Notes: generated by a model not told the origin, from the letters alone. A stretch of DNA of 64,000 nucleotides from Alphaproteobacteria bacterium (GCA_964291265.2 OZ219747.1:1536001-1600000); one strand, 5' to 3'. Positions 6,178 through 64,000 are shown, counted from the stretch's first letter. Numbers and translations are program-made.

Positions 6178-7110
6178 ATGAAAGGTCCTCTCTGCATCGA
6201 GCCAAGGCAGCATGGCTCCGCACTCCGCCGCGCTTGGGGAGGCCGCTTGCGAACGTATCGGCCGAAACTGACCGGCGGCGAACCGCGCTTCCATGCGATC
6301 CGCAAGGCCTTGGTCCGGGGGGAGCTTGTCCTGAACGGCTTCAACCGCTGGCGGCTCCTGCCGGCGACCAGCCCCGCGACCGGCTGGACCTTCGTGGAGG
6401 CGGGGAGGACGGAGGACGCAGGCAACACCGAAATCGGCATCGTCCGGCGCGAGATCGATACGCTGCGCATCGTCACAATGGACGAATCGACCGCCGAGGA
6501 GGTGGCAATGCGGCTTGAGGAAGAGGACGAGCGTTCACATCTCCTTGTCGCGCGACGGGACTGGGGCCAGCATCCTGCGCCCTGTCCGGCATTCCGGCGT
6601 GTTGTTGCATCTGCGAGAAGGCGCGGAATGGTGGTGCACGTCATCGCGGCCTTCGGAACCGAGGTATGCGTCGACGACGAGCTGTTCCGCGAGGCGCGGC
6701 AACGTTGGCGATTCGATAGAGAAACACTGTACCGGCCGCCACCACGGAGCTCGAGCATTGAACGACGATTCGGCGAGATGCTGGTCGCCGCTGGGTTCGA
6801 TCCGATCCCTCAGCATCCGGTAGCCCGCTACTTCCTGGACTTCTCCGTTGTCGGTCATGCGGACGGACTTCCCGTCAGGCTGGACATTGAGGTCGACGGG
6901 CGGCGCTGGCACGAGGAATTGCCGGGTCGCTACCGGGTCGAAGACGAGCGCCGAGATCGAATTCTGAAGTTGCTCGGATGGAGGCCCGTACGATTCTGGA
7001 CCGACGAGATCGAGCAGGACGAAGCGGGATCCATCGAACGAGTCCGCAGGGAAGCGGCGTCGGCGATGCCGCCCGCATCACGGAACACCATCATGGAGGA
7101 GGAGCCATGA
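6178..7110 (+). CDS. DUF559/Vsr-like endonuclease domain protein; N-terminal half may be a degenerate SF1 helicase C-lobe
   Basis: C-terminal SSIERRF...PQHPVARYFLDF...LDIEVDGRRWH...DERRDRILKLLGWRPVRFW is a DUF559-type signature. Start uncertain (6052 TTG or 6178 ATG). Stop overlaps the next ATG (ATGA). Confidence 0.75.
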   Translation: MKGPLCIEPRQHGSALRRAWGGRLRTYRPKLTGGEPRFHAIRKALVRGELVLNGFNRWRLLPATSPATGWTFVEAGRTEDAGNTEIGIVRREIDTLRIVTMDESTAEEVAMRLEEEDERSHLLVARRDWGQHPAPCPAFRRVVASARRRGMVVHVIAAFGTEVCVDDELFREARQRWRFDRETLYRPPPRSSSIERRFGEMLVAAGFDPIPQHPVARYFLDFSVVGHADGLPVRLDIEVDGRRWHEELPGRYRVEDERRDRILKLLGWRPVRFWTDEIEQDEAGSIERVRREAASAMPPASRNTIMEEEP

Positions 7111-8357
7111 CGACATCGGAGCCGACCCGCCGACAACGTCGCACAACGGGACTCTCGGTTGCGCTGCTCGCACTTGCGACCGTGGCGCTCGCGATCGCGT
7201 TCTCGGCAGTTGGCCAGGAGATTCTGACACTGCCGGACAGCCGGCAGGAGGCGGCAGAGATTGCTGCACGTCTGCCCGTGCTGCGGGCGGATCGGGATGC
7301 GCTGCTTGACGAGGTCGCGGCGCACAAGGCCGAGCTGTCGAGCCTGCGAACGAGGGTCGAAGAAGCTCGCGACATTGCTGGCAGGTTGCCGGACCTGCGC
7401 GCCGAGGAAACCAGAGCACGTGCCGAACGTGATCGCCTGACCAGGGAGGTGTCAGCCCTCGTCGCCGATCGGGATTCGCTGCGTGGAACGGTCGATCAGC
7501 TTGTTGAGCGGAGAAGGGGCTTCGAGGACGAGCACCAGAATCTCGTCGATAGATCCAAGGCGGATCGGGATGCGCTGCTTGACGAGGTCGCGGCGCACAA
7601 GGCCGAGCTGTCGAGCCTGCGAACGAGGGTCGAAGAAGCTCGCGACATTGCTGGCAGGTTGCCGGACCTGCGCGCCGAGGAAACCAGAGCACGTGCCGAA
7701 CGTGATCGCCTGACCAGGGAGGTGTCAGCCCTCGTCGCCGATCGGGATTCGCTGCGTGGAACGGTCGATCAGCTTGTTGAGCGGAGAAGGGGCTTCGAGG
7801 ACGAGCACCAGAATCTCGTCGATAGATCCGAGGCGGAACGGAAACGCTTGGATGAGGTTCGGCAGGCAGTCGGTGAAGGGCGAGCGTCCCTCACGCAGAT
7901 CAGGGACGAGCACGCCGCGCAGACCCAGAAACTCGCCCAGCTCATGACTGACCTCGCGGATACGGACCGGCTGCTCGAATCCAAGCGTGCGGAACTCAAG
8001 AGCCTTACCATCGAGGAGCAGGACTTGCGCACTCGAGTTGCGCGACTGCAGGAGGAAGGGGAGAAGCTTGAGATCGGGAACCAGCAGGCGGCGGATCAGT
8101 CGGCCACCCTTCACGAAGAACTTGCCAAGACACGCACCGCACTGACGACGATACAGGGACAACGCGACCAGGCCAGGGACGAGCTGGCCAGAGCCAGGGC
8201 GATGCGGGATGTCGAGCAAGCCAATCTGGAGACGGTGTCCATCCGGCTCCAGCATCTGACAAGCCTCGAAGCTCGGGCACAGCAGCAACTCCGCGCCATG
8301 ATTGAGGATCTGAGCGCAGTGGAACAGACCCGCACCGAATCGGAGTCGTCACAGTGA
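7107..8357 (+). CDS. N-terminal transmembrane helix plus long coiled-coil protein (CnuA-like)
   Basis: RBS GGAGG upstream; hydrophobic LSVALLALATVALAIAFSAVG followed by ~380 aa of E/R/L/A-rich heptad sequence with an internal 91-aa duplication. Confidence 0.85.
   Translation: MTTSEPTRRQRRTTGLSVALLALATVALAIAFSAVGQEILTLPDSRQEAAEIAARLPVLRADRDALLDEVAAHKAELSSLRTRVEEARDIAGRLPDLRAEETRARAERDRLTREVSALVADRDSLRGTVDQLVERRRGFEDEHQNLVDRSKADRDALLDEVAAHKAELSSLRTRVEEARDIAGRLPDLRAEETRARAERDRLTREVSALVADRDSLRGTVDQLVERRRGFEDEHQNLVDRSEAERKRLDEVRQAVGEGRASLTQIRDEHAAQTQKLAQLMTDLADTDRLLESKRAELKSLTIEEQDLRTRVARLQEEGEKLEIGNQQAADQSATLHEELAKTRTALTTIQGQRDQARDELARARAMRDVEQANLETVSIRLQHLTSLEARAQQQLRAMIEDLSAVEQTRTESESSQ
7286..7831 (+). 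repeat. Tandem duplication, 2 x 273 bp (7286-7558, 7559-7831), one mismatch
   Basis: Both copies start GGCGGATCGGGATGCGCTGCTTGACGAGG and end GATAGATCC(A/G)A; the duplication is in frame. Confidence 0.95.
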
Positions 8358-10345
8358 CAGTCGGCGAACTGGGTATCGGCGTCAATTTCGTCGGTATCGC
8401 GCTCATCGTGACCTTGGTCGCTCTGCTCGCGGCTGCATTCGTCATCGGGCGACTCGATCGGCAGAAACGCCATGGTGCGGAGGAGCGCTTGACTCAGGCA
8501 CTGCGGCTGGAACGAGCCAGGGAGGAAGTGCAGATTGACAACCTGCGCAAGGAGAAGGAAGGCATCCTGAAGGCGGCCCTTCGGGCGGAGGACGCGCAGG
8601 AGCGTTGGGAGACGGTCAAGCGCGATCACGAGCAGCTCGAGGCAATGCGCCGGGAACTGGACGACTTCGAACGGGAGGAATCGAAACGTATCGACGAACT
8701 CGAACGACACCGGGTCGAAGCCGCACGGCGGCTCGGAGATGTCCAGGCGGCCCTCGATCAGTACCCGCCGGAAATCGTCGGGAACGAGAGCATCTGGGAT
8801 GAGGTGATTGCCAGGCGCAAGGAGGACTTCGATCGGCTGCGAGAGCATATCGATGCCGCCGAGAAGGAGTACGAGGAAGCCGACGCTCGGCGCACGCGGG
8901 CGGCAAGCGAAACGGAATATCTCGAAGGAAAGAAGTCACGCCTCGACGGAGAAATCGAAGAGGCCCGAGGTCTGCTCGACCAGATTACGCAAGGCCAGAT
9001 CGACGGATTGAAGCCGCTCAACGAGCGGCTCGTCGAAGAGGCGAAGCGGCTTCAGAACGAGATCGAGGGCCTGCAAGAGAAGTGGAACACGATGCAGAAA
9101 GATCTCAAGAACGCCACAGGCTCACAGGTCGGGCGTGTCATCGAGAAGCTCGCCGCGTTCCGGAGCACACCGGATTGCCTGCTGGGATTCGAGGAGGCGC
9201 GGCCGGAGACCGAAACCGATGAAGACATGTTGCTGAGCACATTCGAGGATGCCTTGAGGGATCGCGGACTACAATACTCGAAGCGAATCATCCGGGCCTT
9301 TCACACGGCCCTGAAGGTGAACGATCTCTCTCCGCTGACGGTGCTGAGTGGACTGAGCGGAACCGGAAAGAGCCAGCTCCCCAGAGCCTATGCCCGGTTC
9401 TTCGGGATTCATTTCCTGCACGTGCCAGTCGAACCCGGTTGGGACTCGCCGCAGGATCTCCTCGGTTTCTACGATTTCGTGGCGGAACGCTACCGGCCCA
9501 CGGACCGAGCCCGCGCCCTTGGCCATTTCGACAGCCGATTCGCGAAGGAGATCGGGATCGCGGAAGGCCGCAATTGGAACGAAAGGATGCTCATCATCCT
9601 GCTCGACGAGATGAATCTCGCACGCACGGAGTACTACTTCTCCGAGTTTCTCTCGAGGCTCGAGATGCGGGGGCCACGGGGTGGCGAGCAGGCCGAGGGC
9701 AGCCTCGGGGACGCGCAGATCGCCATCGATCTGCCCTACGCCGAAAACGAGCCTCCGAAACACCTTTATGTCCCGCACAACATCCTCTGGGTCGGGACCC
9801 TGAACGAGGATGAGACAACTCAGGCACTCTCGGACAAGGTTCTGGACCGGGCAAACTCCATCCGCTTCGCACCCCCCGAGCCCAACACCCTTCGCTCGCA
9901 CAGCAAGGCACCGGAATCCGGAATCGCGCCAGCTTCCGGCTACCTGCCCTACCAGCGATGGCTCACATGGTCCAACCGCGGTACGACGGTCGAAATGGGA
10001 GCCGGAGAACAGGTCGACAAAACCCTCGAAACCCTCGCGCGCTGTATGCAGGAAGCGAAACGGGGGTTCGGCTACCGAATCGTACAGAGCATCAGGGCCT
10101 ATATCGAGCACTATCCCGGCCAGGATTGGCGTCAGCCCATGGTCGATCAGATCAACATGCGCCTTCTCCCGAAGCTCTCCGGCGCGGAGATGAGCGAATG
10201 CCACGACAGCCTGGAAGAGCTGAAGCGGACTTGCGAGGAAGAGCTTGGCGATGATGACTTCGCGGAAGCGTTGCAGCGTGCCGTGACCGAGTCCCAATTC
10301 TCGCAGATCTTCACGTGGCCCGGTTATTCTTACAAGCAGGAATAG
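8354..10345 (+). CDS. McrB-family AAA+ NTPase with N-terminal TM helix and coiled coil (CnuB-like)
   Basis: Walker A GLSGTGKS, Walker B ILLDEMNLAR, McrB signature GTLNEDET (NxD) and SDKVLDRAN; N-terminal hydrophobic helix followed by ~230 aa coiled coil; GTGA overlap with the upstream gene. Confidence 0.9.
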   Translation: MTVGELGIGVNFVGIALIVTLVALLAAAFVIGRLDRQKRHGAEERLTQALRLERAREEVQIDNLRKEKEGILKAALRAEDAQERWETVKRDHEQLEAMRRELDDFEREESKRIDELERHRVEAARRLGDVQAALDQYPPEIVGNESIWDEVIARRKEDFDRLREHIDAAEKEYEEADARRTRAASETEYLEGKKSRLDGEIEEARGLLDQITQGQIDGLKPLNERLVEEAKRLQNEIEGLQEKWNTMQKDLKNATGSQVGRVIEKLAAFRSTPDCLLGFEEARPETETDEDMLLSTFEDALRDRGLQYSKRIIRAFHTALKVNDLSPLTVLSGLSGTGKSQLPRAYARFFGIHFLHVPVEPGWDSPQDLLGFYDFVAERYRPTDRARALGHFDSRFAKEIGIAEGRNWNERMLIILLDEMNLARTEYYFSEFLSRLEMRGPRGGEQAEGSLGDAQIAIDLPYAENEPPKHLYVPHNILWVGTLNEDETTQALSDKVLDRANSIRFAPPEPNTLRSHSKAPESGIAPASGYLPYQRWLTWSNRGTTVEMGAGEQVDKTLETLARCMQEAKRGFGYRIVQSIRAYIEHYPGQDWRQPMVDQINMRLLPKLSGAEMSECHDSLEELKRTCEEELGDDDFAEALQRAVTESQFSQIFTWPGYSYKQE

Positions 10346-10371
10346 AGGGCTCGGGCGAGAGACCGACCGCC

Positions 10372-11838
10372 ATGTGGCTGTATGAGTCCTATCGAGAATT
10401 CAGTCGCGAGGCGGCGGGAGTTGCCGTAGCGAAAACCCGGCCCATCGTTGCCGAAAAAACAACACGGCTGTGTCTAGTCGGTACAGACGGGCCGCCCGTC
10501 ATCGTTGCTGCGACCGGGGAGATACCACAAGGCTACCCGATGCTGGAAGGCCCGCACCGCCAGACGCTGCCCCGGGTGCCCGGTCGGTTGCGTGGTCGAA
10601 TCGTTGCGGGCACCTCCGAGGGACAGGAAATCCCCGACCGGCCTCTCGATGCGTGGCTCGTCCCCTGGGGCGTCGGCGAACAACGGACGATGCGCGTCAC
10701 CGTGAAGCCGGGGACCGTGCTCGACATGAATGTCGAGGGGTGGCGCAAGCATGGAGAGGAACGGAAGAGAGACCGAGTTCTGAGAAGGGCGGCCAAGGTT
10801 CTCGATATGACACCCGACGTATTTGCGGCGCAACCGGCGGTCGGGATCGCTTATGAGCAGCTGGAGGACATCTGGAACGATTCGAGCCTGGAGGAAGGGG
10901 ATCCGCAGGGTGAACTGCTCGCGAGGCACGCGAGACACCTGCGGCGCGTGCTTGAAGATCTCGGCGCTCGTCCGCGCGTCGCGCTTCGTACCGAACACCG
11001 ATTGCTCAAGCTTCAAACGGTTCACAGGACCGACGCGAAGACACTCCGGTGGCTCTCCGCTCAGCCCGGGCGAAACACCGCCGAACGGGCCGGCGTCCGA
11101 CAGAGGATGAAGGCTCCGAAACGCTACGAGACGCTCGCGACTCTCGAGAATCGGGTGCTGCGGGCGTTCGCGGCATTGACGGTACGGGAGACGAAGACCT
11201 GGCTCGAGAACACTGGTTCCAACGAGAACAGGGACGCAATCCTGGCCCACCAGCGCCGCACGCGCCGAATCGAGTCCGTTCTAAGAGATCGTCAGGTACC
11301 CGAAGCGAAACCTCCCGTTCGGCCCAACTTCGCCCTTCGCTTCGACCCGCGTTACCGGGAGATCTGGCGCGCCTGGATGGAGCTGCGGGCGCTGAACACC
11401 GCGACCGAACTTCAGTGGATGTGGCAACAGCGGACGTTCATGGAGCTTCTCGAATTCCGTGCGGCGATGAAGCTTCAGCAAGCAGTCCGGGACGGAAGGG
11501 ACGGCGGTACGCTTTCGCATGCTCCCGTGCTGAAGGCAAGGCATCCGCCGAATCAGGGACGCTACCTTCACGATGCCGGCATCCGTGCGACTTTCGGGAT
11601 CGTCGCCGATGGCACTGTCCGCGTCATCGAGTACGGAACGCTCGACGACAACCGGCCGCTCGGTGCTGTGGCACACACCGAGTCGGAGACCGCAGTCTGG
11701 TGGGACGTGGAGGACCTCCAAACAGGGCGGGAAGGTTCGGTCGGCGAGCTCCCCTGGACGGCCGGGCACGCGTGGGACACCGCCTTGCGCAGCTGGGCCG
11801 CAAGAGCCGCCACCCGAGATGAGCCCGGCCCGAGATGA
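10372..11838 (+). CDS. DUF2357 McrC-like partner protein (CnuC-like); no obvious intact PD-(D/E)xK motif
   Basis: RYETLATLENRVLRAF and PNFALRFDPRYREIWRAW resemble DUF2357; lies directly downstream of the McrB-like gene. Confidence 0.75.
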   Translation: MWLYESYREFSREAAGVAVAKTRPIVAEKTTRLCLVGTDGPPVIVAATGEIPQGYPMLEGPHRQTLPRVPGRLRGRIVAGTSEGQEIPDRPLDAWLVPWGVGEQRTMRVTVKPGTVLDMNVEGWRKHGEERKRDRVLRRAAKVLDMTPDVFAAQPAVGIAYEQLEDIWNDSSLEEGDPQGELLARHARHLRRVLEDLGARPRVALRTEHRLLKLQTVHRTDAKTLRWLSAQPGRNTAERAGVRQRMKAPKRYETLATLENRVLRAFAALTVRETKTWLENTGSNENRDAILAHQRRTRRIESVLRDRQVPEAKPPVRPNFALRFDPRYREIWRAWMELRALNTATELQWMWQQRTFMELLEFRAAMKLQQAVRDGRDGGTLSHAPVLKARHPPNQGRYLHDAGIRATFGIVADGTVRVIEYGTLDDNRPLGAVAHTESETAVWWDVEDLQTGREGSVGELPWTAGHAWDTALRSWAARAATRDEPGPR

Positions 11839-12223
11839 GTCGGTTCGTCACGGTCGACCTTAACGGCTGGCTTGATCATCTGGTCGACGAGGACAGGCAG
11901 GTGCGGACACTCGGTTTCCGGTCCTGCCTGTACAAACATGAGGGCACCTGGCTCTGCGGCGCCCAGGCGCTGGCCGCGGCCAGGGATTCCCGGATGGATC
12001 AACCGCTTGTCGTCGGAGCCGAGGCCCTGGACGGGGCGGCCGGACAGGGGATGAACCCGCCGGAGGGGCACGACGCTCTGCCGGCAGCCTTGTGGCAGCT
12101 TGCGGCAGACGCAGCCAGCAGGTCTCCGTCCGGCGGACCGATTCATCTGGCCCTCGTCATTCCGGACGATCAACATCTGGGGAGCGTGGAACCAGGCAAG
12201 ACAGGCAAAACAGCGGTAACTAC

Positions 12224-13702
12224 TCACCCCTTGTTAGGGTCTGGTTGTCCGTAGTGCTGGTTGAGGATGTCTACGGCCTTTCCGTCGAGGGCGATGTGGA
12301 TGGCGACGTGAGGGTTGTAGCCGAGTGCGTCCATGGTGGTGAGGTAGCTTGAGCCGCGGCACCATGCTTTGGCGTGGGGCATGGTACGGAAACATCCGGA
12401 CACCTTGATCTTGACCTTTGTCATCCTGATCTTCTGCTCTCCGGTATTATTTGTGAAACTGACATTGGGGTCCTTCATGAAGCGCAGGACGGACTTCTCG
12501 TGTTTCACGAGACGTTCATGCAGGTTGTGCGCGTCGGACTTTGCGATGCGTCCCCGTTTTCCTTTCGTCCGTGGCGGGATGTCGGGCAGTTCCCTGGCGC
12601 CCTGGGTGAGGATGGTGCGGTAGCGCTTGCGCACGGCCCGGCGGTCGGCCTCGTTCAAGGTCTTGGATGCGCTCTTGTTGACCCTGCGGGAGACCTCGCG
12701 CAGCAGGCTTTTCATCAGTCGCGCCCAGCGGTAGCCGTTGGACTCGACGACGAAGGTCAGTTCGCGCAGGAGATGGCTGCCGCACAGTTGGTGGCGGCAT
12801 TGATCGTAGCCCATGTAGGCAGCCCAGCAGTCGTGGATCAGGACGCCCTTGTAGCGCGGGATGATGCCGATCTCTTCGATCGCCTCCCGGCCGCGCTTGG
12901 GGTGCGGGAACTTGCACGTCAGGGTGCCGTCGGTGACGACATGGAGCCATTGGGTCTTGCCGGCGACCCGGAAGCCGGTCTCGTCGACATGCAGGGCCGG
13001 TTGTTGCAGGAGATGGGCCACGGCGGCCTCCTCCCATGATGCGAGGGCATCGTGAAAGCGCCGGACATAGCCGAGGCAGGTCGCCTCGGAGAGCTTGATG
13101 CCGGAGATCGCGTGCACGAGCGAGACGGCACGACGCAGGGACAGCATCTGGGCGATCAGCAGGTTGATGACGAGGGCCTGGATGCTGACGCCATACTGCA
13201 GGGGGCCCGGCATGTTGTCTGGGAACCGGCCCTTGGTCCGGGTCCGGCACTTCGGGCATTCCTTGATCTCGGCTTCGACGCGGCGCTCGACGACTTCGAA
13301 CACGATGTCGTAGAGGACGCGGCACTCCCGGTCGACGGGGTCGACATCGTGGAGGTCGGCGCCGCAGGCGTCGCAGGCATCGACGACGATCGTCTCCTCG
13401 ACGGTGGTCGTGCGCAGGTTGTCGCCCGTCTGCTGGTTCGGTTTCGGGCCCTTGCCGTGGCTCCCGGTGCGCCTCGCGCTCTCGTCCTTGTCAGTCTGCG
13501 ATGGCGGCAGACCGGAGTTCCGGCTTGTCTTGCGTGTGATCTTCTCCATGAGCACGGTCAGCAACAGCTTTATCAGCATCAGCATGCCGCGGAAGAGCTC
13601 CTCGCACTCCTGGTTGACCTTGCCCTGCTTGCGGAGATCCTGGAACTGCTTCTGGAAGACGTCGGCCTCCTGGCGCACAGACGTGCCGTTCACGCTCGCC
13701 AT
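12224..13702 (-). CDS. IS66 family transposase (TnpC-like)
   Basis: NSGLPPSQ, zinc-finger CDAC/CPKC, LHVDETG, LIHDCW, HQLCGSHLLREL, FTNNTGEQKIRMTKVKIKVSGCFR. Stop lies inside the IR. Alternative GTG start at 13693. Confidence 0.93.
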   Translation of the reverse strand: MASVNGTSVRQEADVFQKQFQDLRKQGKVNQECEELFRGMLMLIKLLLTVLMEKITRKTSRNSGLPPSQTDKDESARRTGSHGKGPKPNQQTGDNLRTTTVEETIVVDACDACGADLHDVDPVDRECRVLYDIVFEVVERRVEAEIKECPKCRTRTKGRFPDNMPGPLQYGVSIQALVINLLIAQMLSLRRAVSLVHAISGIKLSEATCLGYVRRFHDALASWEEAAVAHLLQQPALHVDETGFRVAGKTQWLHVVTDGTLTCKFPHPKRGREAIEEIGIIPRYKGVLIHDCWAAYMGYDQCRHQLCGSHLLRELTFVVESNGYRWARLMKSLLREVSRRVNKSASKTLNEADRRAVRKRYRTILTQGARELPDIPPRTKGKRGRIAKSDAHNLHERLVKHEKSVLRFMKDPNVSFTNNTGEQKIRMTKVKIKVSGCFRTMPHAKAWCRGSSYLTTMDALGYNPHVAIHIALDGKAVDILNQHYGQPDPNKG

Positions 13703-14364
13703 GACGACGCCTCCACCGCCATGACAGCCGCCAGCACGGCGAGCCGCTCGCCTTCGGGCATCGTCCGGTAGCGCCGCGCCCAGCTCTCTGCGAGGCGCTT
13801 GATGCGCTGGCGGTCGATCGAGTTCCTGCCCGCACACGTATGCCAGTGCGGCCGGCCCGGTGCGAAGTTGAACCACAGCTTCTCGGTGACAACGCAGGCC
13901 TGGTTGTTGACCTGGACCTCGGCCGAGCGCCAGCCGGCGAGGTGCGTGTCGTAGAGCCGCGAGGGATAGCCGGAGATCATCACCTGGCAGGGCAGCGACG
14001 TCAGGATGTCGAGGAGCGCAACATGGTCATCGTCCGTGCAGTCGAAGCGGTAGCGGCGCTGCGACCGGCGCGTCGACTGCACGTAAGGCGGGTCGCAGTA
14101 GACCAGCTCGCGGCCCTGGAAGGCGAAGGTCTCGAGAAAACGCAGGGCGCAGCCTTGGTGAAGCTCCACCGGATAGTCACAGCGGAAGGTGTCGATCGCC
14201 CGTCGGTTGAGGTCGATGCCGATGCTGCGTAGCGCCGGAGGCTTGCGCTTCATGATCGCGCCGCCCCCAAGGAACGCCTCGATGTACACGTCATGCGGCG
14301 GCATGGCCGCGACGATCGCCTGGCTCAGACCCGTCGTCGCCTTCGATCCGTACCATGCCGCCAT
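13690..14364 (-). CDS. Dam-like (D12 class) N6-adenine DNA methyltransferase, IS passenger
   Basis: YGSK, YIEAFLGGGAI (motif I), GIDL, LVYCDPPY (motif IV), VMISGY; intact 224-aa ORF. Confidence 0.9.
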   Translation of the reverse strand: MAAWYGSKATTGLSQAIVAAMPPHDVYIEAFLGGGAIMKRKPPALRSIGIDLNRRAIDTFRCDYPVELHQGCALRFLETFAFQGRELVYCDPPYVQSTRRSQRRYRFDCTDDDHVALLDILTSLPCQVMISGYPSRLYDTHLAGWRSAEVQVNNQACVVTEKLWFNFAPGRPHWHTCAGRNSIDRQRIKRLAESWARRYRTMPEGERLAVLAAVMAVEASSWRA

Positions 14365-17039
14365 CAATATCTCCGACGCAAACCGCCCCGATGGCCAGCA
14401 TGTAGAGTGCCCCTCCTACAATGTCAAGCGCATATCTCCAGAGGATTGGAAAGGCAGCCAACCGCTGTGGATGATTGCATCATCACGGGGACAAAACCTG
14501 GTCATACAAGGCCGGAACGTGGAGCTGAAGCCGAAGATCGATCCGCTTCTTGTCAGTCGGAACACGCACATCCGATCATCGGCAGCGAGCAAGTGAAGGC
14601 GGCAAGAGAAAATGCCGGATCCGAACCCGTCAGGAAAAACGATCCGTCATCAGTAGGGGGTGAGTAGTTACAAACAGCGCTCGAAACCCTCCATGAATCC
14701 ATCGAGAGCTCACGCCCCCATGCGCTTGCCGGGAACCGCGTTGAACTCGTGTGGCGCTCCGTGGCGGCGCTCAAGGCGATCATGAATCAGGGGAGGCTCG
14801 GGGGCGCGCCGGGCGCCGTCCTCGTGATCAGCGTCAACCGGAAGACGTACTGGACGGTCCTGGAGTTCCGCCCATGGTCCCGGGACGGTCAAGTCGGCGA
14901 CTCCCTCCATATCGTCCGAAGTCCCGTGATGGAGGATTGCGAGGAGAGCGAGGCGTGGACAGCCAGCAGGGCGCAGGCCATCCAGAACACGATGGACGCC
15001 CGGGGCATCGGCCACCGCGATCAGATTGGCCAATGGACGCGGTGGGTCGAGATCCTGGCGACGGGAATGGAAGCGAAGTCGCTCGCGAAGTTCGGAATCG
15101 ATGCCGACGCTATCGAGCATCGGAGCTGGCCGAAGCCGAACGGCGGATGGGAGATATGGTCCGGTACGCTGCCGATCACGGTGGCCATCCCGGTATCAGA
15201 CTCACTTCCGAGTGCGCTCGCGAAGAGGATCGAGAGCTTCCGAGACGGCTACGAGGGACCTCCCCTCGCGATCGTTGTCGATAGCCCCGCCGGGCCCGAG
15301 ATGATCGCTGCGTTCGAGACACGAGTTCGACAGCTTGCCGAGAGTGTCCCAGTCTATCGCGTGACGGGAGCTGACACAGCCCGGGCAGCAGGATGTCTCG
15401 CCGAGGCCCTGGGGCGGGATCCGGAGGCGCCCGCGTGGCTCGACGCGGTACCCGGCATCGAGATCGAGGTCCGCAAGGCAACGAAGGACGGTTCGACCGA
15501 GTCCAAAACCGAATGGATGACCGTCGTCCCCGGAACGGAGGCGATTCCGGCGGGCGAGGTCTACCGGACCCGCACCGATCCGAACCGGCACGTCACCCTG
15601 GCACCCGGCATCGAGCATGTGCACCTGCACCTTCGCCGAGGCCGGGATCATGAGTGGGACGAGCGGTACAGCGGTAGGGACACGGGACACACGATCCATC
15701 CCAGTGATCATGTCCGCATCGTGGAACCCCTCGCCCGAGTGCGACCGCTGTCGGGTGAAGCCCGGATAGAGATCGTCGAGCATCGTCCGGATGGCGAGGT
15801 GGAAGCGCTGCCTGGGTCGATGGGCATCAAGTGGAGCGACATGAGCAAGAAGCGCCCCGATGCACTCCGAAGCATCCCCGATCTGTACATTTTCCGGTCG
15901 GATGAAGGCGCATGGAATGAGCTGGAGTGTCTGCTCCGTCGAGTCATCGAAGAGAACAGCACTGACAAGGGAATCAGCCTCGATCTGAAGGATCGATTGT
16001 ACGAGTGCACGCAGAAGCAATGGCGAGAGCGGGTGTTTCCGCTGGGCTCGGACGGTGCGCCGCCCCGCGCCGACAATCCGCAACGCTACCGGAATTCGGA
16101 AAGGCTCCTGGTCGAATCGACCAATGCACTGCTCTCCGATCTTGAAAGGAACGTGGCGAGCAGCCGAAAGATCCAGGCAAAGGAGGCAAACCGGTTGCAC
16201 CTGCCGCTTACCTGGCTCTTCACTGGTTGTCCGGAGCGGACGATCGAAATCCTGCTCGACGCGATCGGAGATCCGGAAGGTCCCGCGGGGCGTGTGCTCC
16301 ACATGGAGAACGAGTTCTCCGCCTGGTCGATCTACTCGGGCGTCGGGCGAGCGGCGCGCAGCGAAGAAACATTGCGGGTTATATTCGACACGTTGATAGG
16401 GGCGTGGGAGAACAGGAAGAATCTGCCTCAGGACAGATTCCTGCTCGCTGCGGTGACGCATCCCATGGCGCGAAGAGTCGCGGTACGAAGAGTCCTCGGC
16501 GAGAGCCGGGAACGGTTCGATCGGGCAGGGCGCTTCCTGCGTCGGCATCTCGAGAACCTGCGGGAAGGCAATCACGATCCTCGGCCGCGATCCAGCCGGC
16601 GGAACGGGACGAATCCGAGCCTTGAGCTGCGATACGTGACGATGGGATACCGAGGGCTGTGCCAGATCAGGCATGTCAGACCGGACTGGTTCGATGCCGA
16701 CGGAGAAGACGCGAGGGACCTTTGCACGATGCTTCGTCAAGCCCGAAGAATTGGACGTCTTTTCGAGCAGGAGCTCGTGGACCGGACCGCACCTTATCTG
16801 ATCGGTAAAGGGGAGGATCCTTCGATGCCCGGGGGATTCTGATGAGACCGGTGGTATCCGAGTACGGACGACGTCGATGCAGCCCCCGGACTCATGACCC
16901 ACTTCAGACATCCTGACCTCGTCCAACAACAGGTGAGATGATTCCGGAGTGTTGCGCCGTCGATGTCTTGGGCGATGAGCAGAACCCGGACACGTCTGCA
17001 TGTCGACGCCGGCACGGCGCGGCCTTCGTCCAAACCCGC

Positions 17040-28694: not shown

Positions 28695-29519
28695 GTAACT
28701 GCCCAGGTCTGATTTCGCCGAGTCCTGACGGGAGGTGGATTGATGGCTGCGGTCTGATGGCGCCGAGGAGGGATGTCAGAAGCGCAGTTTCGGGATCAGC
28801 TGTATGGGATCGGGGTGGGCCAGTGTTTCGAGGACATTCCAGCCCTGTTTTCGGGCGATGGAGATGACGGATCGCAGCTTGGCGAAGTCCCATGCGCCCT
28901 GCATGGATCGGAAGCCGCCCGAGATTTTCTGGCGCAGCTTGCTCATGCGGAAGTCTTGCTCGGCCTGGTTGTTGGAGAACGGGACTTGCGGGTTGGTGAG
29001 GAAGCGCAGGCAGCCGTCCTTATGTTTGTGAAGGCGGAGCGCGAGGTTGTGGCCGATGCGGCGTTTTCGTCGTCCGCGCTTTCCGGGCTGGAGCGGCGAC
29101 CTCTGTTCGTGGGAAGCGATGGCCTGCTCGAGGATCCTGTCCCAGGCTTGCGAGATGCGGGCGAGGAGTGAAGCGGGGATGTCGCGGTCGTTCTTGCGGG
29201 CGAAGCGGGCGGCTCTGTTGGCACGGATGAGGAGCCTGTGCATGGCGGTGGCCCAGTCTTCCTTCTCGATCTCGATCAGAGCCTGGAGTTCGCGCGAGCG
29301 ATGGGCGTTGCAGGCACCGTGGCGCACGCCTTCGAGAGTGAAGTAAGTGGCCAAGTCGTCATGGATGACGATGCCGTTGAGTGTCTCGTCGATGTGTTTG
29401 CGCCCGGTGGCGATGCGCAGGATGGTGAGCAAGGGGGTGCACAGCACATGGAGCCAGTGGGTCTGGCCGTTGATGCGGATACCGGTCTCGTCGAGGTGTT
29501 TGACCGGTGCTTGGGTGCG
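28695..29519 (-). mobile_element. IS66 right-end fragment (3' part of transposase), sister copy of the element at 61760
   Basis: End GTAACTGCCCAGGTCTGATT; near-identical to 61760-62585; translates HLDETG...HGACNAHRSREL...FSNNQAEQDFRMSKLRQKISGGFRS. Confidence 0.9.
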
Positions 29520-29740
29520 GTGTGCCAGGTGAACTGGCGGAAGGTAGGGGGTGAAAGTCCCCTGGAACGAAGGAGTAACCAAACCACGTTTCTCCGCGAG
29601 CCGTGCGTCGGTTCCCGCGAGGGGGCAGGCGAAGCGTCGGTAGCGGTGCGGATGGGCGGGGCTAATGAGCACCGAAAAAGCAGTCATCCGGGGTGCCGAG
29701 GCTTTCGTACCGGTCGAAGGCAACATCGCAGGCATCGGCA
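29520..29740 (+). ncRNA. Group II intron 5' remnant (domain I), antisense to the IS66 transposase
   Basis: Starts GTGTG (GUGYG consensus) where identity with the sister IS66 ends; contains GGGTGAAAGTCCC, GAGCCGTGCG, CCCGCGAGGG, GGCGAAGCGT, GGGTGCCGA and GAAGGCAACA, which resemble bacterial group II intron domain I motifs. No RT or domain V seen. Confidence 0.7.
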
Positions 29741-55230: not shown

Positions 55231-55235
55231 CTGCC

Positions 55236-55908
55236 CGGAAGCGATCGAAGATATCGGCATCATCCCGCTCTTCGAGGGCGTCCTGATCCACGACTGCTGG
55301 GCTGCCTACATGGGCTACGATCAGTGCCGCCACCAACTGTGCGGCAGCCACCTCCTGCGCGAGATGACCTTCGTCGTCGAGTCCGACGGCGACCGCTGGC
55401 GCGATTGATGAAGAGCCTTCTGCGCGAGGCATCCCGCAGGGTCAACAAGAGCGCATCCAAGACCTTGAACGAGGCCGACCGCCGGGCCGTGCGCAAGCGC
55501 TACCGCACCATCCTCACCCAGGGTGCCAGGGAACTGCCCGACATCCCGCCACGGACGATGAGGAACACGTGGACGCATCACAAAGTCCGACGCGCACAAC
55601 CTGCATGAACGTCTCGTGAAACACGAGAAATCCGTCCTGCGCTTCATGAAGGACCCCAATGTCAGTTTCACAAATAATACCGGAGAGCAGAAGATCGGGA
55701 TGACAAAGGTCAAGATCAAGGTGTCTGGATGTTCCCGCACCATGCTCCATGCCAAAGCATGGTGCCGGGGCTCAAACTACCTCACCACCATGGACGCACT
55801 CGGCTACAACCCTCTCGTCGCCATCCACATCGCCCTCGACGGAAAGGCCGTAGACATCCTCAACGAGCACTACGGACAACCAGACCCCAACAAGTGGTGA
55901 GTAGTTAC
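55236..55908 (+). mobile_element. IS66 right-end fragment, degenerate sister of the 12216-14671 element
   Basis: Near-identical to the reverse complement of 12216-~12890; ends GGTGAGTAGTTAC at 55908; frameshifted. Confidence 0.9.
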
Positions 55909-57137: not shown

Positions 57138-57177
57138 CACGAGCGTGGTCAACCATGCTCATCCGTTCCGACAGGTC

Positions 57178-60100
57178 ATGACACGTCGACTGTATTCCGG
57201 GCTCTACGAAGACCTGCTGACCTCCGCTCTGGAGGCGGAAGTCAATGCCCGAACGGCGGAGGGCTGGTGGGTTGACATCGCCCCGGCGAACTCAACTGTT
57301 CGTCCCGAGCTCCTGGCCCGTCATGTTTATCACCTCCTTCGACGTGCGCTCGAAGGGATTCCCGAAGAAGACGGTGCGCAGCCGGCCAACCAGGTCGCCC
57401 TGGCGAATCGACTGGTGGAGGTCCTCGTCGAACATGGCGCAATGGCCGACGATCGGGTTGCAGACGCCGCGCGCCTGCTCCTGGAAGCTGTGGAAAGCGG
57501 AGCATTGGGCGGTACGCAATCGACAATTCCGCGCCCGACACTCTCGCTTCGTCGGACCGGCCTGCTCGTCAATGGCCGGCGCGACGTCCAGATCGCGAGC
57601 GAAATCGCGCGGGAGATCCCGAGTGCCGATCGGATCGACCTCCTCTGCGCATTCGTGCGGCATTCGGGGTTGCGGCTGTTCCGCTCCGAGCTTGCAGAAC
57701 GGGTAGGAGAGGGTGCGCGGGTGCGCGTGATCGCAAGCGTCTATACCGGGTCAACCGAACGCCGAGCGCTGGACGCGCTTGTCCATCTCGGTGCGCACGT
57801 GAAGGTCTCCTACGACGTGGCGCGGACCCGGCTTCATGCCAAGGCGTGGCTGTTCCACCGGCACAGCGGTCTGCACACCGCCTACATCGGTTCGTCAAAT
57901 CTCACCCACACGGCACAGGTCGACGGCCTCGAATGGAACGTGCGCGTGAGCGCGGCCGAGAATCCGGAGGTGATCGAGCGCTTCCAGGCGACCTTCGAAC
58001 AGTACTGGCGAGAGCCCGAGTTCGAGGACTATAAGCCCCAGCGTGACAGTGAGCGTCTCGACCACGCGCTCTCGAGACAGCGCGGCGATTCCGGAGTAGA
58101 CGACGGCACAGCGCTGTCTCTGCTGGTCGACGTCACACCGAAGCCTCACCAGGCTGTCGCGCTGGAGGCCCTCGAAATAGAGCGTCTGCGCGGATACCAC
58201 CGCAACCTCGTGGTCGCGGCGACCGGCACCGGCAAGACCTGGATTGCGGCATTCGATTTCAAGCGGCTGCGCGATCAGGGTGCGGCTCGTTCCTTGCTCT
58301 TCGTCGCGCACCGCGACGAGATCCTCCTTCAGAGTCAGCAAGTCTTTCAGCTCGTACTGCGCGAGCCGGGGTTCGGTGAGCGGCTGGTCGGCGGCGAGCG
58401 TCCACGCGCTGGTCACCACATCTTTGCCTCGGTGCAGTCTCTTGTCAACCGCATCGACGAAATCGATCCGGAAGATTTCGACGTGGTCATCGTGGACGAG
58501 TTTCATCATGCTGCCGCCACGAGCTACGAGCGCCTGCTGTCACGTCTGAGACCGAAAGTGCTCCTCGGACTCACGGCCACGCCGGAGCGCGCTGACGGCC
58601 AGTCAGTGCTGCAGTGGTTCGACGGCCGCAAAGCTTCGGAGTCCCGGCTCTGGGATGCCCTTGACCAGGGGCTGCTCTGCCCGTTTCATTATTTCGGGGT
58701 GAACGACGCGACCGATCTCTCGGCGGTCCGTTTCGAGCGCCGACGATATGTGTCTGAGGAGCTCGACAACGTGTTTACGGGCGATCACGTTCGAGCGGTT
58801 CGGATCCTCCAGGCTGTCGAGGAATTCGTGACCGACCCGCACCAGATGCGGGCGCTGGGATTCTGCGCAGGCATCGGTCACGCCCACTTCATGGCGAGGC
58901 AGTTCACCGGTTTCGACTACCCGACAATGGCGCTCGATGCCAGCACCCCCGGGGACGATCGTCGAGCGGCGCTCGCGAGACTGCGGCGCGGAGAACTTCG
59001 AGCCGTTTTCGCCGTCGATCTCTTCAACGAGGGTGTCGACCTTCCCGAAGTCGACACCGTGCTCATGCTGCGGCCGACCGAAAGCGCCACGGTGTTTCTC
59101 CAGCAGCTCGGAAGAGGGCTGCGGTGGGCCGAGGGGAAGCGGGTTCTCACTGTCCTCGACTTCGTGGGCCAGGTTCGGCGTGAGTACCGCTACGACGTGC
59201 GCTATCGAGCCCTGCTGGGGGGCACCCGCCATCAGGTCAAGCACGCCATCGAGGCGGACTTTCCACGGCTCCCACCGGGATGTGCGCTCAAACTGGATCG
59301 CGTCGCCAAGAAGACGGTGCTGCGCAATCTGAAAGAGGCGGTGCAAAATGCTCGTGCAAGCCTCGCCGATGACCTGCGCGCTCTCGGACCTGAAACACGG
59401 CTCCGCGGCTTCATGGTGGACGCCGGTGTCGAACTCGAAGAAATCTACGCACGACCCGGTTCGGGACACTGCTTTACCGAGCTCCGTCGGCGGGTTGGCT
59501 TCGAGCAGAGCGCTGTCGAAGACTCTCTCCTCAAGGCTATCGGCAAACTACTTCACGTAGACGATCGCGAGCGGATCGAGTTCTGGCGAGACCTCCTGCT
59601 GGGGGATCGTTCCAGCGGCATCGCGGAACTCGAGGGCCGCAAGCATCGCCTCGGCCTCATGTTGTTCGCGCTTCTGGGCAGCCGTCGTCAGGCGATCGAC
59701 GAGGTTGATCAGACATTGGAAAGTGTCCGTGGCTCTTCAGAATTGCGTCGCGAGACCGGCGACCTCCTGGAGATTCTCGCGGACCGCATTCGCACGGTCT
59801 CCCAGCCGCTTGATCCTGCCAGCGATGCTCCCCTGGCCAGCCACGCCACCTATACCCTGGGCGAGATTGCCGCGGCACACGGGCACACTGACAAAGGTGG
59901 CGCGCTGGTGTTTCCGCAGGGCGGGGTTCTTTGCTGTGAAACATTTCTGATCCCTGCGACGCCTTTTGTTGAACAGGGCGCGAGCGACCTGTCGGTCAGG
60001 CGCATGCCTGACCGCCGTGTGGTGGTTCTGGCTGACGCCTGTTGACGAACCTTGGACCTTTCCGGCTACCCCGCGTCTATGGCCATCAAGGGTCTGGTTC

Positions 60101-61659: not shown

Positions 61660-61759
61660 GCGTTCGGCCGTGCGGTGACGGCTGATTTTGGTGGGTTTTG
61701 GGACTGGCTGACAACCGTCTGAGAAAGTGCTGGCAAGCATCCTCAACCGGTCGAATATC
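61656..61759 (+). mobile_element. IS66-derived MITE (left part) interrupted by the IS66-MTase element
   Basis: Starts GTAAGCGTTCGG; its last 23 bp GCATCCTCAACCGGTCGAATATC match 30172-30193, which lies ~30 bp inside the IS66 end at 30224. Confidence 0.65.
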
Positions 61760-61840
61760 GTAACTGCCCAGGTCTGATTTTGCCGAGTCCTGACGGGAGG
61801 TGGATTGATGGCACCGGTCTGGTGGCGCCGAGGAGGGATG

Positions 61841-63383
61841 TCAGAAGCGCAGTTTCGGGATCAGCTGTATGGGATCGGGGTGGGCCAGTGTTTCGAGGAC
61901 ATTCCAGCCCTGCTTTCGGGCGGTGGAGATGACGGATCGCAGGTTGGCGAAGTCGCTCAGCACCCTGCATGGATCGGAAGCCGCCCGAGATTTTCTGGCG
62001 CACCTTGATCATCCGGAAGTCGCGCTCGGCCTGGTTGTTGGAGAACGGGACTTGCGGGTTGGTGAGGAAGCGCAGGCAGCCGTCCTTGTGTTTGCGGAGG
62101 CGGAGCGCGAGGTTGTGGCCGATGCGGCGTTTTCGTCGTCCGCGCTTTCCGGGCTGGAGTGGCGGCCTCTGTTCGTGGGAAGCGATGGCCTTCTCGAGGA
62201 TCCTGTCCCAGGCTTGCGAGATGCGGGCGAGGAGTGAAGCGGGGATGTCGCGGTCGTTCTTGCGGGCGAAGCGGGCGGCTCTGTTGGCACGGGTGAGGAG
62301 CCTGTGCATGGCGGTGGCCCAGTCTTCCTTCTCGATTTCGATCAGAGCCTGGAGTTCGCGCGAGCGATGGGCGTTGCAGGCACCGTGGCGCACGCCCTCG
62401 AGAGTGAAGTAAGTGGCCAAGCGTCATGGATGACGATGCCGTTGAGTGTCTCGTCGATGTGTTTGCGCCCGGTGGCGAGGCGCAGGATGGTGAGCAAGGG
62501 GGTGCACAGCACATGGAGCCAGTGGGTCTCGCCGTTGATGCGGATGCCGGTCTCGTCTGTGGTGTTTGACCGGGGCTTGGGTGCGGATGATCTCTGCGAC
62601 ATGATCGAGGAAGCTCTCGAAGCGCCGGGCGGTGCGCCTGCCCATGGCGGCGATGGTGGCGGTTGAGATCCTGACGGCGAAGAGGTCGCTCATGACCTCG
62701 GCGACGCGCTTCTCGGGAATGAACTGGGCGTGCAACAGGTAGGTCACCCAGGCGGTGATGCGCGGCCCGTACTGGACCGGGGCGCTCACGCCGTGCGGGA
62801 AGGCGGCTGTTGTCACGGCGCCGCAGGCGGCGCAGAGACAGCGATGGGCGCGATGTTCGGTGACCTCGAGGGGCTGCGGCTCGGGCATGTCGAAGACCTG
62901 CCGACAGACGGGTTCTGCGTGACGGTCATCATCCGACAGCGGCGCGCCGCAGCCCTTACAGGCAGACGGAGCATGATCGACGACGTGGTCCGGGTTCTCG
63001 GCCTGCTTCAGGGTGGTTCCCTCGTGGCCGCGCTGACCGCCACTGGGCCTGTCGGACTTGCCGCGCTGGCTCCGGGTGCGCTTCTGTCGGTTTCCGCTCT
63101 TCTTCTTCGGACCGTCGCTGGCCGGTGGCTTGGAGCTGGTGGAGCTGTCGAGCGCGGCGCTGCGCTCGAGTGCATCAATCCGTTCGCGCAAGCCGGTGTT
63201 CTCCCGCTCCAGCGCCTCGATCTCCCCGACCAGCGCCGCGCTCAGGCGCAACATCCCCTGGCCCCATTCCCGGAGGGCCTTGACGGCAGTCACGGCGAAG
63301 GGGTGTGGACTGAACAGGTCCTGAAGGCCCACGAAGGCCTCGTCCTGGGCGGCGATGTCCTCGCGCCAGCGCGAGACGGTCAC
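61841..63383 (-). pseudogene. IS66 transposase with about three frameshifts
   Basis: DSSTSSKPPASDG, GGQRGHEG, CKGC/CAAC, APVQYGP, DETG, CNAHRSREL and NNQAERDFRMIKVRQKISGGFRS spread over different frames. Confidence 0.88.
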
Positions 63384-64000
63384 GAACCCTCCCCGGCCTC
63401 GACGGCCATGATCGCCGCCAGCACTGCCAGACGTTCCCCCGGCGGCATGGCCTCGTAGCGCCGCCCCCAGTTGGCCGCCTTGCGCTTGATGCGCTGGCGG
63501 GCGGTGAAGTTCCGCCCCGCGTAGCGCGACCAGTGCACCCGGTCGGGAGCAAAGTTGAACCATACCACCTCGGTCCGCACCTGGGCCTAGGTCGTCACCT
63601 GCAGCGCCACCCGGCGCCAGCCCGCCAGAAGATCGTCATAGAGCGCTTCACGGGTGGCCCGAGACCATCACCTGGCAGGGCAGGCCCTTGAGCAGTTCAA
63701 GGAGCGCAACATGGTCCACCTCCTCGTACTCGAAGCGGTAGCGCCGCGACGAACGCCGCGTCGCGTGCAGATAGGGCGGATCGCTGTAGACCAGCTCCGG
63801 ACCCAGAAACGGGAACGAAGCCAGGAAGGAGTGAGCACAGCCGTGCACCAACTCCACCGGATAGTCGCACTCAAAGGCCCCAAGCGCACGCTCATCACGG
63901 TCAATCCCGATCGAGCGCACAGACGCAGGCTTGCGCTTCATCAGCGCGCCGCCCCCCAGATGGCTCTCGATATAGACAGAGTGCGGCGGCATCAGCGCAA
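63380..64000 (-). pseudogene. Dam-like adenine methyltransferase (frameshift near 63650, TAG near 63588; 5' end outside window)
   Basis: MPPHSVYIESHLGGGALMKRKP...LVYSDPPY...VMVSG; C-terminal EVVWFNFAP...RQRIKRKAANWGRRYEAMPPGERLAVLAAIMAVEA. Confidence 0.88.

Follow-up and report, generated by a model that had tools for sequence, protein, structure and literature searches.

Insertion sequences (ISs) must limit their own jumping, and how those of the IS66 family are controlled is poorly known. Classical IS66 elements carry tnpA, tnpB and tnpC in this order and in one direction. Members of the ISBst12 group (e.g. ISDge4) have GTAACT-type ends, an 8-bp target duplication and a solo TnpC transposase without TnpA or TnpB, and they are described as having a single open reading frame (ORF) (PMC12898284). 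Accessory genes and negative control from within an element are both known: transporter ISs (tIS) carry passenger genes, transposons may encode repressors such as Tn3 TnpR (PMC9330008), and viral mariners carrying a methylase have been described (PMC3627910). Here we describe element A, an intact IS66 element at positions 12216-14671 of a 64,000-nt stretch (hereafter the window) from an Alphaproteobacteria bacterium (GCA_964291265.2 OZ219747.1:1536001-1600000), in which a gene for a 224-aa methylase-fold protein stands ahead of the transposase gene. By analogy with the plasmid protein Upf31, we favour the reading that this gene and its promoter form a cassette that would act as a portable autorepressor, limiting transposase expression.

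The closest tested relative of the 224-aa protein is Upf31 of the IncP-1beta plasmids, which represses its own promoter: the full-length protein lowered reporter activity from 4.76 to 0.09 units. Repression requires the C-terminal domain and is lost with Y180A, F185A or W198A, no methylation signal was obtained by DpnI/MboI digestion or by SMRT (single-molecule, real-time) sequencing, and the tail is predicted to bind KorB (PMC11997246). That paper (Elg et al. 2025) is a plasmid survey and reports no link to ISs in its available sections (PMC11997246). EcoDam itself has also been proposed to repress without methylating (PMC4417163). In a full-text literature search, whose sources did not include ISfinder, TnPedia or the main IS66 papers, we met no account of the cassette as part of an IS; it may already be catalogued there.

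Element A contains two genes only, both on the minus strand, between perfect 15-bp inverted repeats (IRs; GTAACTACTCACCCC) at 12216-12230 and 14657-14671, and is flanked on both sides by the 8-bp duplication AAACAGCG. Its features are as follows (a strand is given for genes and promoter elements).

12208-12215: target duplication AAACAGCG, left copy, 8 bp
12216-12230: right terminal IR, 15 bp, perfect
12224-13702, minus: IS66 TnpC transposase of the solo (ISBst12-like) kind; read from the ATG at 13702 it has 492 aa
13710-13714, minus: GGAGG, predicted ribosome-binding site for the transposase, inside the V-E-A codons that end the upstream gene
13690-14364, minus: Upf31-like methylase-fold protein, 224 aa (catalytic fold 1-168, helical tail 182-220)
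14399-14404, minus: putative -10 box TACATG, a weak match, at 17-nt spacing from TTGACA and overlapping the right dyad arm
14401-14420: putative operator, dyad TGTAG-N10-CTACA (family consensus RTAG-N10-CTAY); binding predicted by analogy
14422-14427, minus: -35 box TTGACA
14657-14671: left terminal IR
14672-14679: target duplication AAACAGCG, right copy, 8 bp

A first-pass annotation of the sequence had described just such a complete element, holding nothing besides an ORF with FLGGG and DPPY motifs and then a transposase, and this description stands. No restriction endonuclease accompanies the methylase-like gene inside the element's ends, where the transposase is its only neighbour. The transposase matches NF033517 (251.9 bits; cut-off 180) and PF03050 (E 4e-42), and motif positions suggest D240, D291 and E422 as its acidic triad. 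Its nearest named relatives are ISGka4 and ISGst1 (32-33% identity), which we take to belong to the ISBst12 group. The element's IRs begin with GTAA and are of the GTAACT type, resembling the published ends of ISDge4. Element A is an IS66 element by its ends, duplication and TnpC, and is near the ISBst12 group except for its second gene: to the single-ORF plan it adds a conserved gene, a promoter and a dyad ahead of tnpC, and it differs from classical IS66 in lacking tnpA and tnpB.

The methylase stop and a transposase GTG start had been proposed to overlap. The GTGA is present at 13690-13693, and a transposase begun at GTG 13693 would have 489 aa; the in-frame ATG at 13702, 9 nt upstream and with GGAGG 7 nt ahead of it, is the likelier start. 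The genome holds 10 uninterrupted copies of element A, 9 with an exact 8-bp duplication and all with both frames open; three are mutually identical, as are another two. Matching 8-bp duplications also flank seven further copies that are interrupted or nested. Intact copies with duplications, some of them identical, indicate that element A is a real IS that has multiplied recently, moving as a two-gene unit.

The 224-aa protein (14364-13690) carries FLGGG at residues 31-35 and DPPY at 91-94. Motif I precedes DPPY, which in the predicted model corresponds to an S-adenosylmethionine (SAM)-binding fold of the Dam/D12 type. Family profiles match weakly (PF02086, 34.5 bits; TIGR00571, 38.8 bits where the cut-off is 114.85), and the model (predicted local distance difference test score 79) assigns residues 1-168 to a Dam-like catalytic fold that superposes on EcoDam 2G1P with Z 18.7 and a root-mean-square deviation (rmsd) of 2.3, 150 residues being aligned over EcoDam 7-270. 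Catalytic fold, motif order and DPPY are thus shared with the alpha-class Dam/D12 enzymes (EcoDam, T4Dam, DpnM), from which the protein differs in two respects. The stretch between the motifs that would hold the target-recognition domain spans about 29 profile positions compared with about 121 residues in DpnM, and is so short that this domain is missing; and a C-terminal tail is added, with predicted helices at 182-200 and 204-220, in a region (182-220) that the matched structures do not cover. The annotated Dam-like active DNA methylase is therefore not sustained, as the target-recognition domain is absent and the closest tested relative is a non-methylating autorepressor: the protein is not a Dam by membership and probably works most like Upf31. 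The helical extension of about 45 aa noted earlier is real, but a tail peculiar to ISs was rejected, being present in plasmid and phage relatives outside any IS.

Comparison of 58 IS-type and 22 non-IS sequences shows both retention and change. The GxK is near invariant alongside DPPY, the glycine-rich motif and D51. The aspartate of motif III is D in 20/22 non-IS rows and C in 57/58 IS rows, and motif I has H instead of F in 52 of the 58. Tail residue W195 occurs in every IS row and aligns with Upf31 W198. The gene is under purifying selection: dN/dS, the ratio of nonsynonymous to synonymous substitution rates, was 0.04-0.37 in 21 of 23 pairs, the other two being saturated. In three longer homologues (P0163, P0193, P0202), motifs II and III are separated by low-complexity insertions resembling translated dyad repeats, as if such repeats had spread into the gene. 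Four others (P0179, P0214, P0241, P0168) are fused to other domains, two of which resemble cytosine-methylase domains by eye.

Among the 160 closest loci, a transposase is the next gene on the same strand in 150 (77/80 genome loci, from 22 genomes, and 73/80 metagenome loci, whose exceptions include two undelimited loci and three with <260 nt downstream). This is not a family-wide rate, since loci were ranked by similarity to IS-borne queries; none of the 51 viral loci (three undelimited) has a transposase downstream. Together with the low dN/dS, this arrangement identifies the gene, as the first-pass annotation had supposed, as a conserved module and not chance cargo; of the roles that annotation offered, self-regulation is the best reading. 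Stop and start overlap by 4 nt in 71/76 scored genome loci and are separated by a 1-30 nt gap in 62/68 scored metagenome loci, so that what is conserved is the predicted co-transcription and not a strict coupling. Obligatory start-stop coupling was rejected on these gapped loci. A programmed methylase-transposase fusion was also set aside, the open upstream transposase frame being explained by high G+C (a slippery site was not sought).

The association had been noted in two IS66 lineages and proves wider, extending to several IS66 lineages, ISKra4 and IS701. Solo TnpC architectures with the cassette comprise types A, B (transposase 35% identical) and L178 (28%). The cassette is also carried by relatives of classical IS66 with GTAAGCG ends, 8-bp duplications, TnpA, TnpB and a classical TnpC, in which tnpC is separated from tnpAB behind the cassette: tnpA-tnpB face it from the opposite end in 44/55 classical TnpC loci, and at L156 it is inserted between tnpB and tnpC. 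It lies inside the elements' own IRs in ISKra4 (L154, L162, L164) and IS701 (L146) elements, and at L164 an IS66 left end persists inside the ISKra4 IR as a remnant of the capture. The cassette is found within the ends of unrelated ISs and moves between IS families as a unit. The methylase-like proteins of element A and L022 are 86% identical, their transposases 24%. In a quick tree (80 of 217 sequences, thinned by identity, midpoint root), the 58 IS-type rows form one clade (Shimodaira-Hasegawa-like approximate likelihood ratio test 99), sister to the phage protein L194, within which transposase types are interleaved. A majority of homologues outside IS boundaries had been named beforehand as a sign against a functional module; the distant ones do lie on plasmids and phages, yet the IS-borne proteins form this clade of their own.

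The distribution is patchy. A 400-genome sample of the phylum gave two matches at E<=1e-25, both non-IS, and among genomes of the same genus 11 of 22 others had any match at E<=0.001, the IS form being scattered. At L264, in a genome of another family, the methylase-like protein is 95% identical and the transposase part 73%, suggesting horizontal transfer together with an exchange at the gene junction. At L256 the partner of the cassette is yet another IS66-like transposase (33% over 106 aa), and at L179:165-2767 and L145:189-3032 it lies within inverted repeats of other types. The 451-aa ORF of L179 matched no NCBIfam or PHROG family and the 553-aa ORF of L145 matches IS66 below cut-off; these two are possibly undescribed IS groups.

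Upstream of the methylase-like gene, the cassette has the form TTGACA-N2-RTAG-N10-CTAY. Among 100 distinct IS-type promoter windows (three loci with short upstream sequence dropped and five non-IS loci kept apart), 95 have the TTGACA start; the left TAG is present in 92 and the right CTA in 90, with both arms together in 86. Where several TTGAC were present the script favoured one with a dyad, and relatedness inflates these counts. The outer dyad pair is complementary in 74/100 windows compared with 43.6 after shuffling (0/10,000 shuffles as high, uncorrected for relatedness). The five inner pairs are complementary in only 11-32/100 and the inner spacer is unconserved; an RNA hairpin was rejected on these unpaired inner bases. 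In this genome a left TAG accompanies 28 of 65 TTGAC-N17-CTA sites, and all 28 lie behind an element left end. One copy each of element A, element B and two relatives contains a single TAG-N10-CTA site. A consensus promoter scan did not return the proposed TTGACA/TACATG promoter of element A.

Upf31 of pBP136 is 42% identical over 220 aa, tail included (E 9e-62), and closer homologues (44-51%) occur on plasmids (166 records, 129 conjugative) and in Salmonella and Klebsiella phages; one of these homologues is annotated Upf31.0. With Upf31 (pBP136, R751) the IS-borne proteins share full-length similarity, the C-terminal domain, the tryptophan at W198 and a methylase annotation, and in the promoters of both, TTGACA stands ahead of a dyad whose arms are 5 bp long and whose spacer has 10 nt. 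The plasmid dyads are clustered, pBP136 having 13 perfect CATCG-N10-CGATG repeats (at most two at other spacers), compared with one dyad per element in the IS cassette. The upf31 promoter has one imperfect copy after TTGACA at the same offset as the IS dyad, and the half-site is ATCG/CGAT there as against RTAG/CTAY in the ISs. Chromosomal homologues L186 and L187 have ATCG-N10-CGAT at the dyad position behind TTGACA, and some phage homologues have CATAG-N10-CTATG upstream (three each at L196 and L211, one at L194, none in 6 of 12 examined). From the plasmid class to the IS class the two arms change in concert, which is what an operator read by a protein would be expected to show. The IS-borne proteins differ further in the D to C change of motif III, in lying inside IS ends at the head of a transposase operon, and in having no KorB-like gene in the element.

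In pBP136 (L104) the dyad repeats are mostly followed directly by a 6-bp palindrome (CTGCAG, GTCGAC, CTCGAG or GGGCCC), and similar palindromes stand between the phage repeats (upstream regions of L194, L196, L211 and L216). The non-IS homologues L186 and L187 overlap by 4 nt a downstream gene for a 257-aa 8-oxoguanine-glycosylase-like protein, a case of the cassette design standing ahead of other cargo.

With Upf31 as the model, a single transcript from the TTGACA promoter would span the methylase-like gene and the transposase. The methylase-like protein would dimerise through its helical tail, and the dimer would occupy RTAG-N10-CTAY across the spacer and the -10 box, blocking RNA polymerase. 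Entry into a repressor-free cell would then give a pulse of transposase, which would be held down as copies accumulate because a single repressor would act on every copy in trans. The likely history of the cassette is a single capture from a phage-type gene that has this dyad, followed by exchange among transposases through recombination at the gene junction. Compared with tIS and Tn3 TnpR, the regulator here would be a methylase-fold protein whose cassette moves between IS families. Like a tIS, the element carries an extra gene, whose position and promoter suggest a role in transposase control. The arrangement is real and conserved, and its role is probably regulatory.

A second element of the window bears on these ideas. 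Element B (61760-64202) extends past the window end and has 13-bp IRs (GTAACTGCCCAGG) and the duplication CGAATATC. Its features within the window are as follows.

61752-61759: target duplication CGAATATC, 8 bp, with its second copy after 64202, beyond the window
61760-61772: right terminal IR, 13 bp
61773-63383, minus: transposase region, with frame changes near 62558, 62422 and 61959
63380-64000, minus: methylase-like gene, frameshifted near 63650; start, promoter and left end outside the window (to 64202)

Compared with A, family B (copy B1) has a methylase-like protein that is 63% identical and a transposase that is 35% identical. The different ends, divergent transposase and homologous methylase-like gene claimed for this second IS66 are all present, but both genes are broken in the window copy: the methylase-like frame ends at about codon 133 (near 63650) and the transposase has three frame breaks. 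The GTGA at 63380-63383, once read as a coupling signal here as well, is not reached in frame because the upstream frame has already stopped. Five of the eight copies of family B share one frameshift in the methylase-like gene. The three with an intact 513-aa transposase all have a frameshifted methylase-like gene, each with its own duplication, and two of them are identical at different sites; the three copies with an intact methylase-like gene have a broken transposase and no duplication. Since methylase-frameshifted copies stand at several sites with duplications, the gene seems not to be required in cis in family B. The element A protein could serve family B in trans, and these natural mutants fit a dispensable brake, not a helper required in cis. 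In the region 60937-64241, which runs past the window end, element B itself lies inside a miniature element of about 140 bp whose GTAAGCG ends are those of a third IS66 family; this miniature element interrupts a PDC-S19 defence gene after 240 of its roughly 357 aa.

Several results weigh against an autorepressor. Upf31, at 42% identity and with a different half-site, is a distant model. The right dyad arm is partly explained by the promoter itself: it overlaps the -10 box, which leaves the left arm and the covariation as the parts that do not depend on promoter function. When 300 other genomes were searched with the 26-nt pattern, 16 matches (15 genomes) were obtained compared with 17 for the reversed control, so that the pattern alone is not diagnostic; 14 of the 16 had no methylase-like gene nearby and the cassette was at two. 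Each of the 58 IS rows has DPP, with Y next in 57, and D51 and the glycine motif are likewise retained, which is strong conservation for a protein doing no chemistry, yet Upf31 retains these motifs too. At the positions of Upf31 Y180 and F185, where IS rows have Y/F in 44/58 and F/Y in 39/58 (H in 14 more), the element A protein has C177 and S182. S182 is found in all copies of A but in 1/58 rows (a 95% identical protein in another genome carries the same residue). The element A copy may thus be a weakened repressor, or the Upf31 analogy may be loose; that a weakened brake explains the expansion of A is speculation. Family B copies look mosaic, leaving the order of frameshift and transposition uncertain. 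Lastly, the third IS66 family of this genome has at least eight near-identical full copies, and no cassette was detected in it although it has multiplied.

Host Dam methylation controls IS10 and IS50, and the retained motifs raise the possibility that the protein is itself an active, operator-specific adenine methylase. A dimer would methylate the symmetric CTAY adenines, one of them the -11 A of the promoter, and the element would have a methylation switch of its own; on replication, or on arrival in a new host, the transposase would be expressed for a short time. The near invariance of DPPY, the glycine-rich motif, GxK and D51, the superposition on EcoDam and the A at the third base of CTAY and CGAT half-sites alike speak for this explanation; the SMRT test of Upf31, in which the strain carried an expression vector and motifs were called at default settings (PMC11997246), could moreover have missed a long or rare site. 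We nevertheless regard it as unlikely: Upf31 gave no methylation signal (PMC11997246), IS rows have the motif III and motif I substitutions described above, and sites of the ATCG-N10-CGAT type are not rare (708 strand-counts in this genome), so that a short target should have appeared in the SMRT data. We also entertain, as a bolder and rather doubtful proposal, a tail-dimerised Dam relative without a target-recognition domain that would read a bipartite site 10 bp apart and, depending on SAM, clamp or methylate the -11 adenine of its own promoter, tying jumping to replication, host entry or methyl-donor supply; its phage-derived cassette would have been placed before IS66, ISKra4 and IS701 transposases, re-ordering the IS66 genes.

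The lack of a target-recognition domain would suit a broad or non-specific adenine methylase, a passenger protecting the element or incoming DNA from restriction, with the dyad limiting its own expression. Relatives on conjugative plasmids (129/166 records) and phages and the wealth of defence-like genes in the window agree with such protection, which is nonetheless improbable given the absence of methylation by Upf31 (PMC11997246) and the place of the gene directly upstream of the transposase even where tnpA-tnpB are turned or tnpB and tnpC are split: a gene set ahead of the transposase in ISs points to transposase control rather than general protection. An accessory protein whose tail contacts the transposase or a host protein, and which so modulates the transposition complex, would account for the conserved two-helix tail, the predicted contact of the Upf31 tail with KorB (PMC11997246) and the start-stop overlap in many elements. 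We consider it less probable still, as the partners of this one protein clade include transposases that share 24% identity or cannot be aligned, which argues against specific contact, and frameshifted B copies are present at several sites with duplications. Finally, neutral cargo captured once and carried along could explain the persistence of B copies with a broken gene and the success of a third family with no detected cassette, but is very improbable and largely refuted by selection and the conserved cassette: dN/dS is low, the gene is intact in 10/10 uninterrupted A copies, the promoter dyad is conserved and pairing with unrelated transposases has recurred.

Element A interrupts a long ORF, of which 11835-12215 resumes in frame at 14680-16842. 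This ORF ends a cluster (6978-16842) that also encodes a DUF2357 protein and two coiled-coil proteins, of which one matches PDC-M26A (E 4e-37); the pieces of the interrupted protein have no PADLOC or NCBIfam match. The cluster looks like a defence operon knocked out by element A. Elsewhere in the window are a type IV restriction-like helicase (57145-60045) and additional remnants of IS66 elements: part of a family B right end (28695-29520), an end of the third family (30213) and part of a family A right end (55233-55908).

If the autorepressor reading is correct, the cassette is a compact and testable control device, in which a protein of 224 aa is combined with a promoter-operator of 26 bp, common to unrelated IS families. 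It would extend Upf31, the one characterised member, from plasmids to ISs and phages, and offers a predicted binding geometry for the long-unexplained repeat clusters of IncP-1beta. Were catalysis at the operator true, such an IS would have its own epigenetic switch. The Atlas returned methylase-named clusters only. Thousands of proteins annotated as DNA adenine methylases may include many regulators: a separate search at E<=0.001 gave 3,568 clusters, some of them outside this subfamily.

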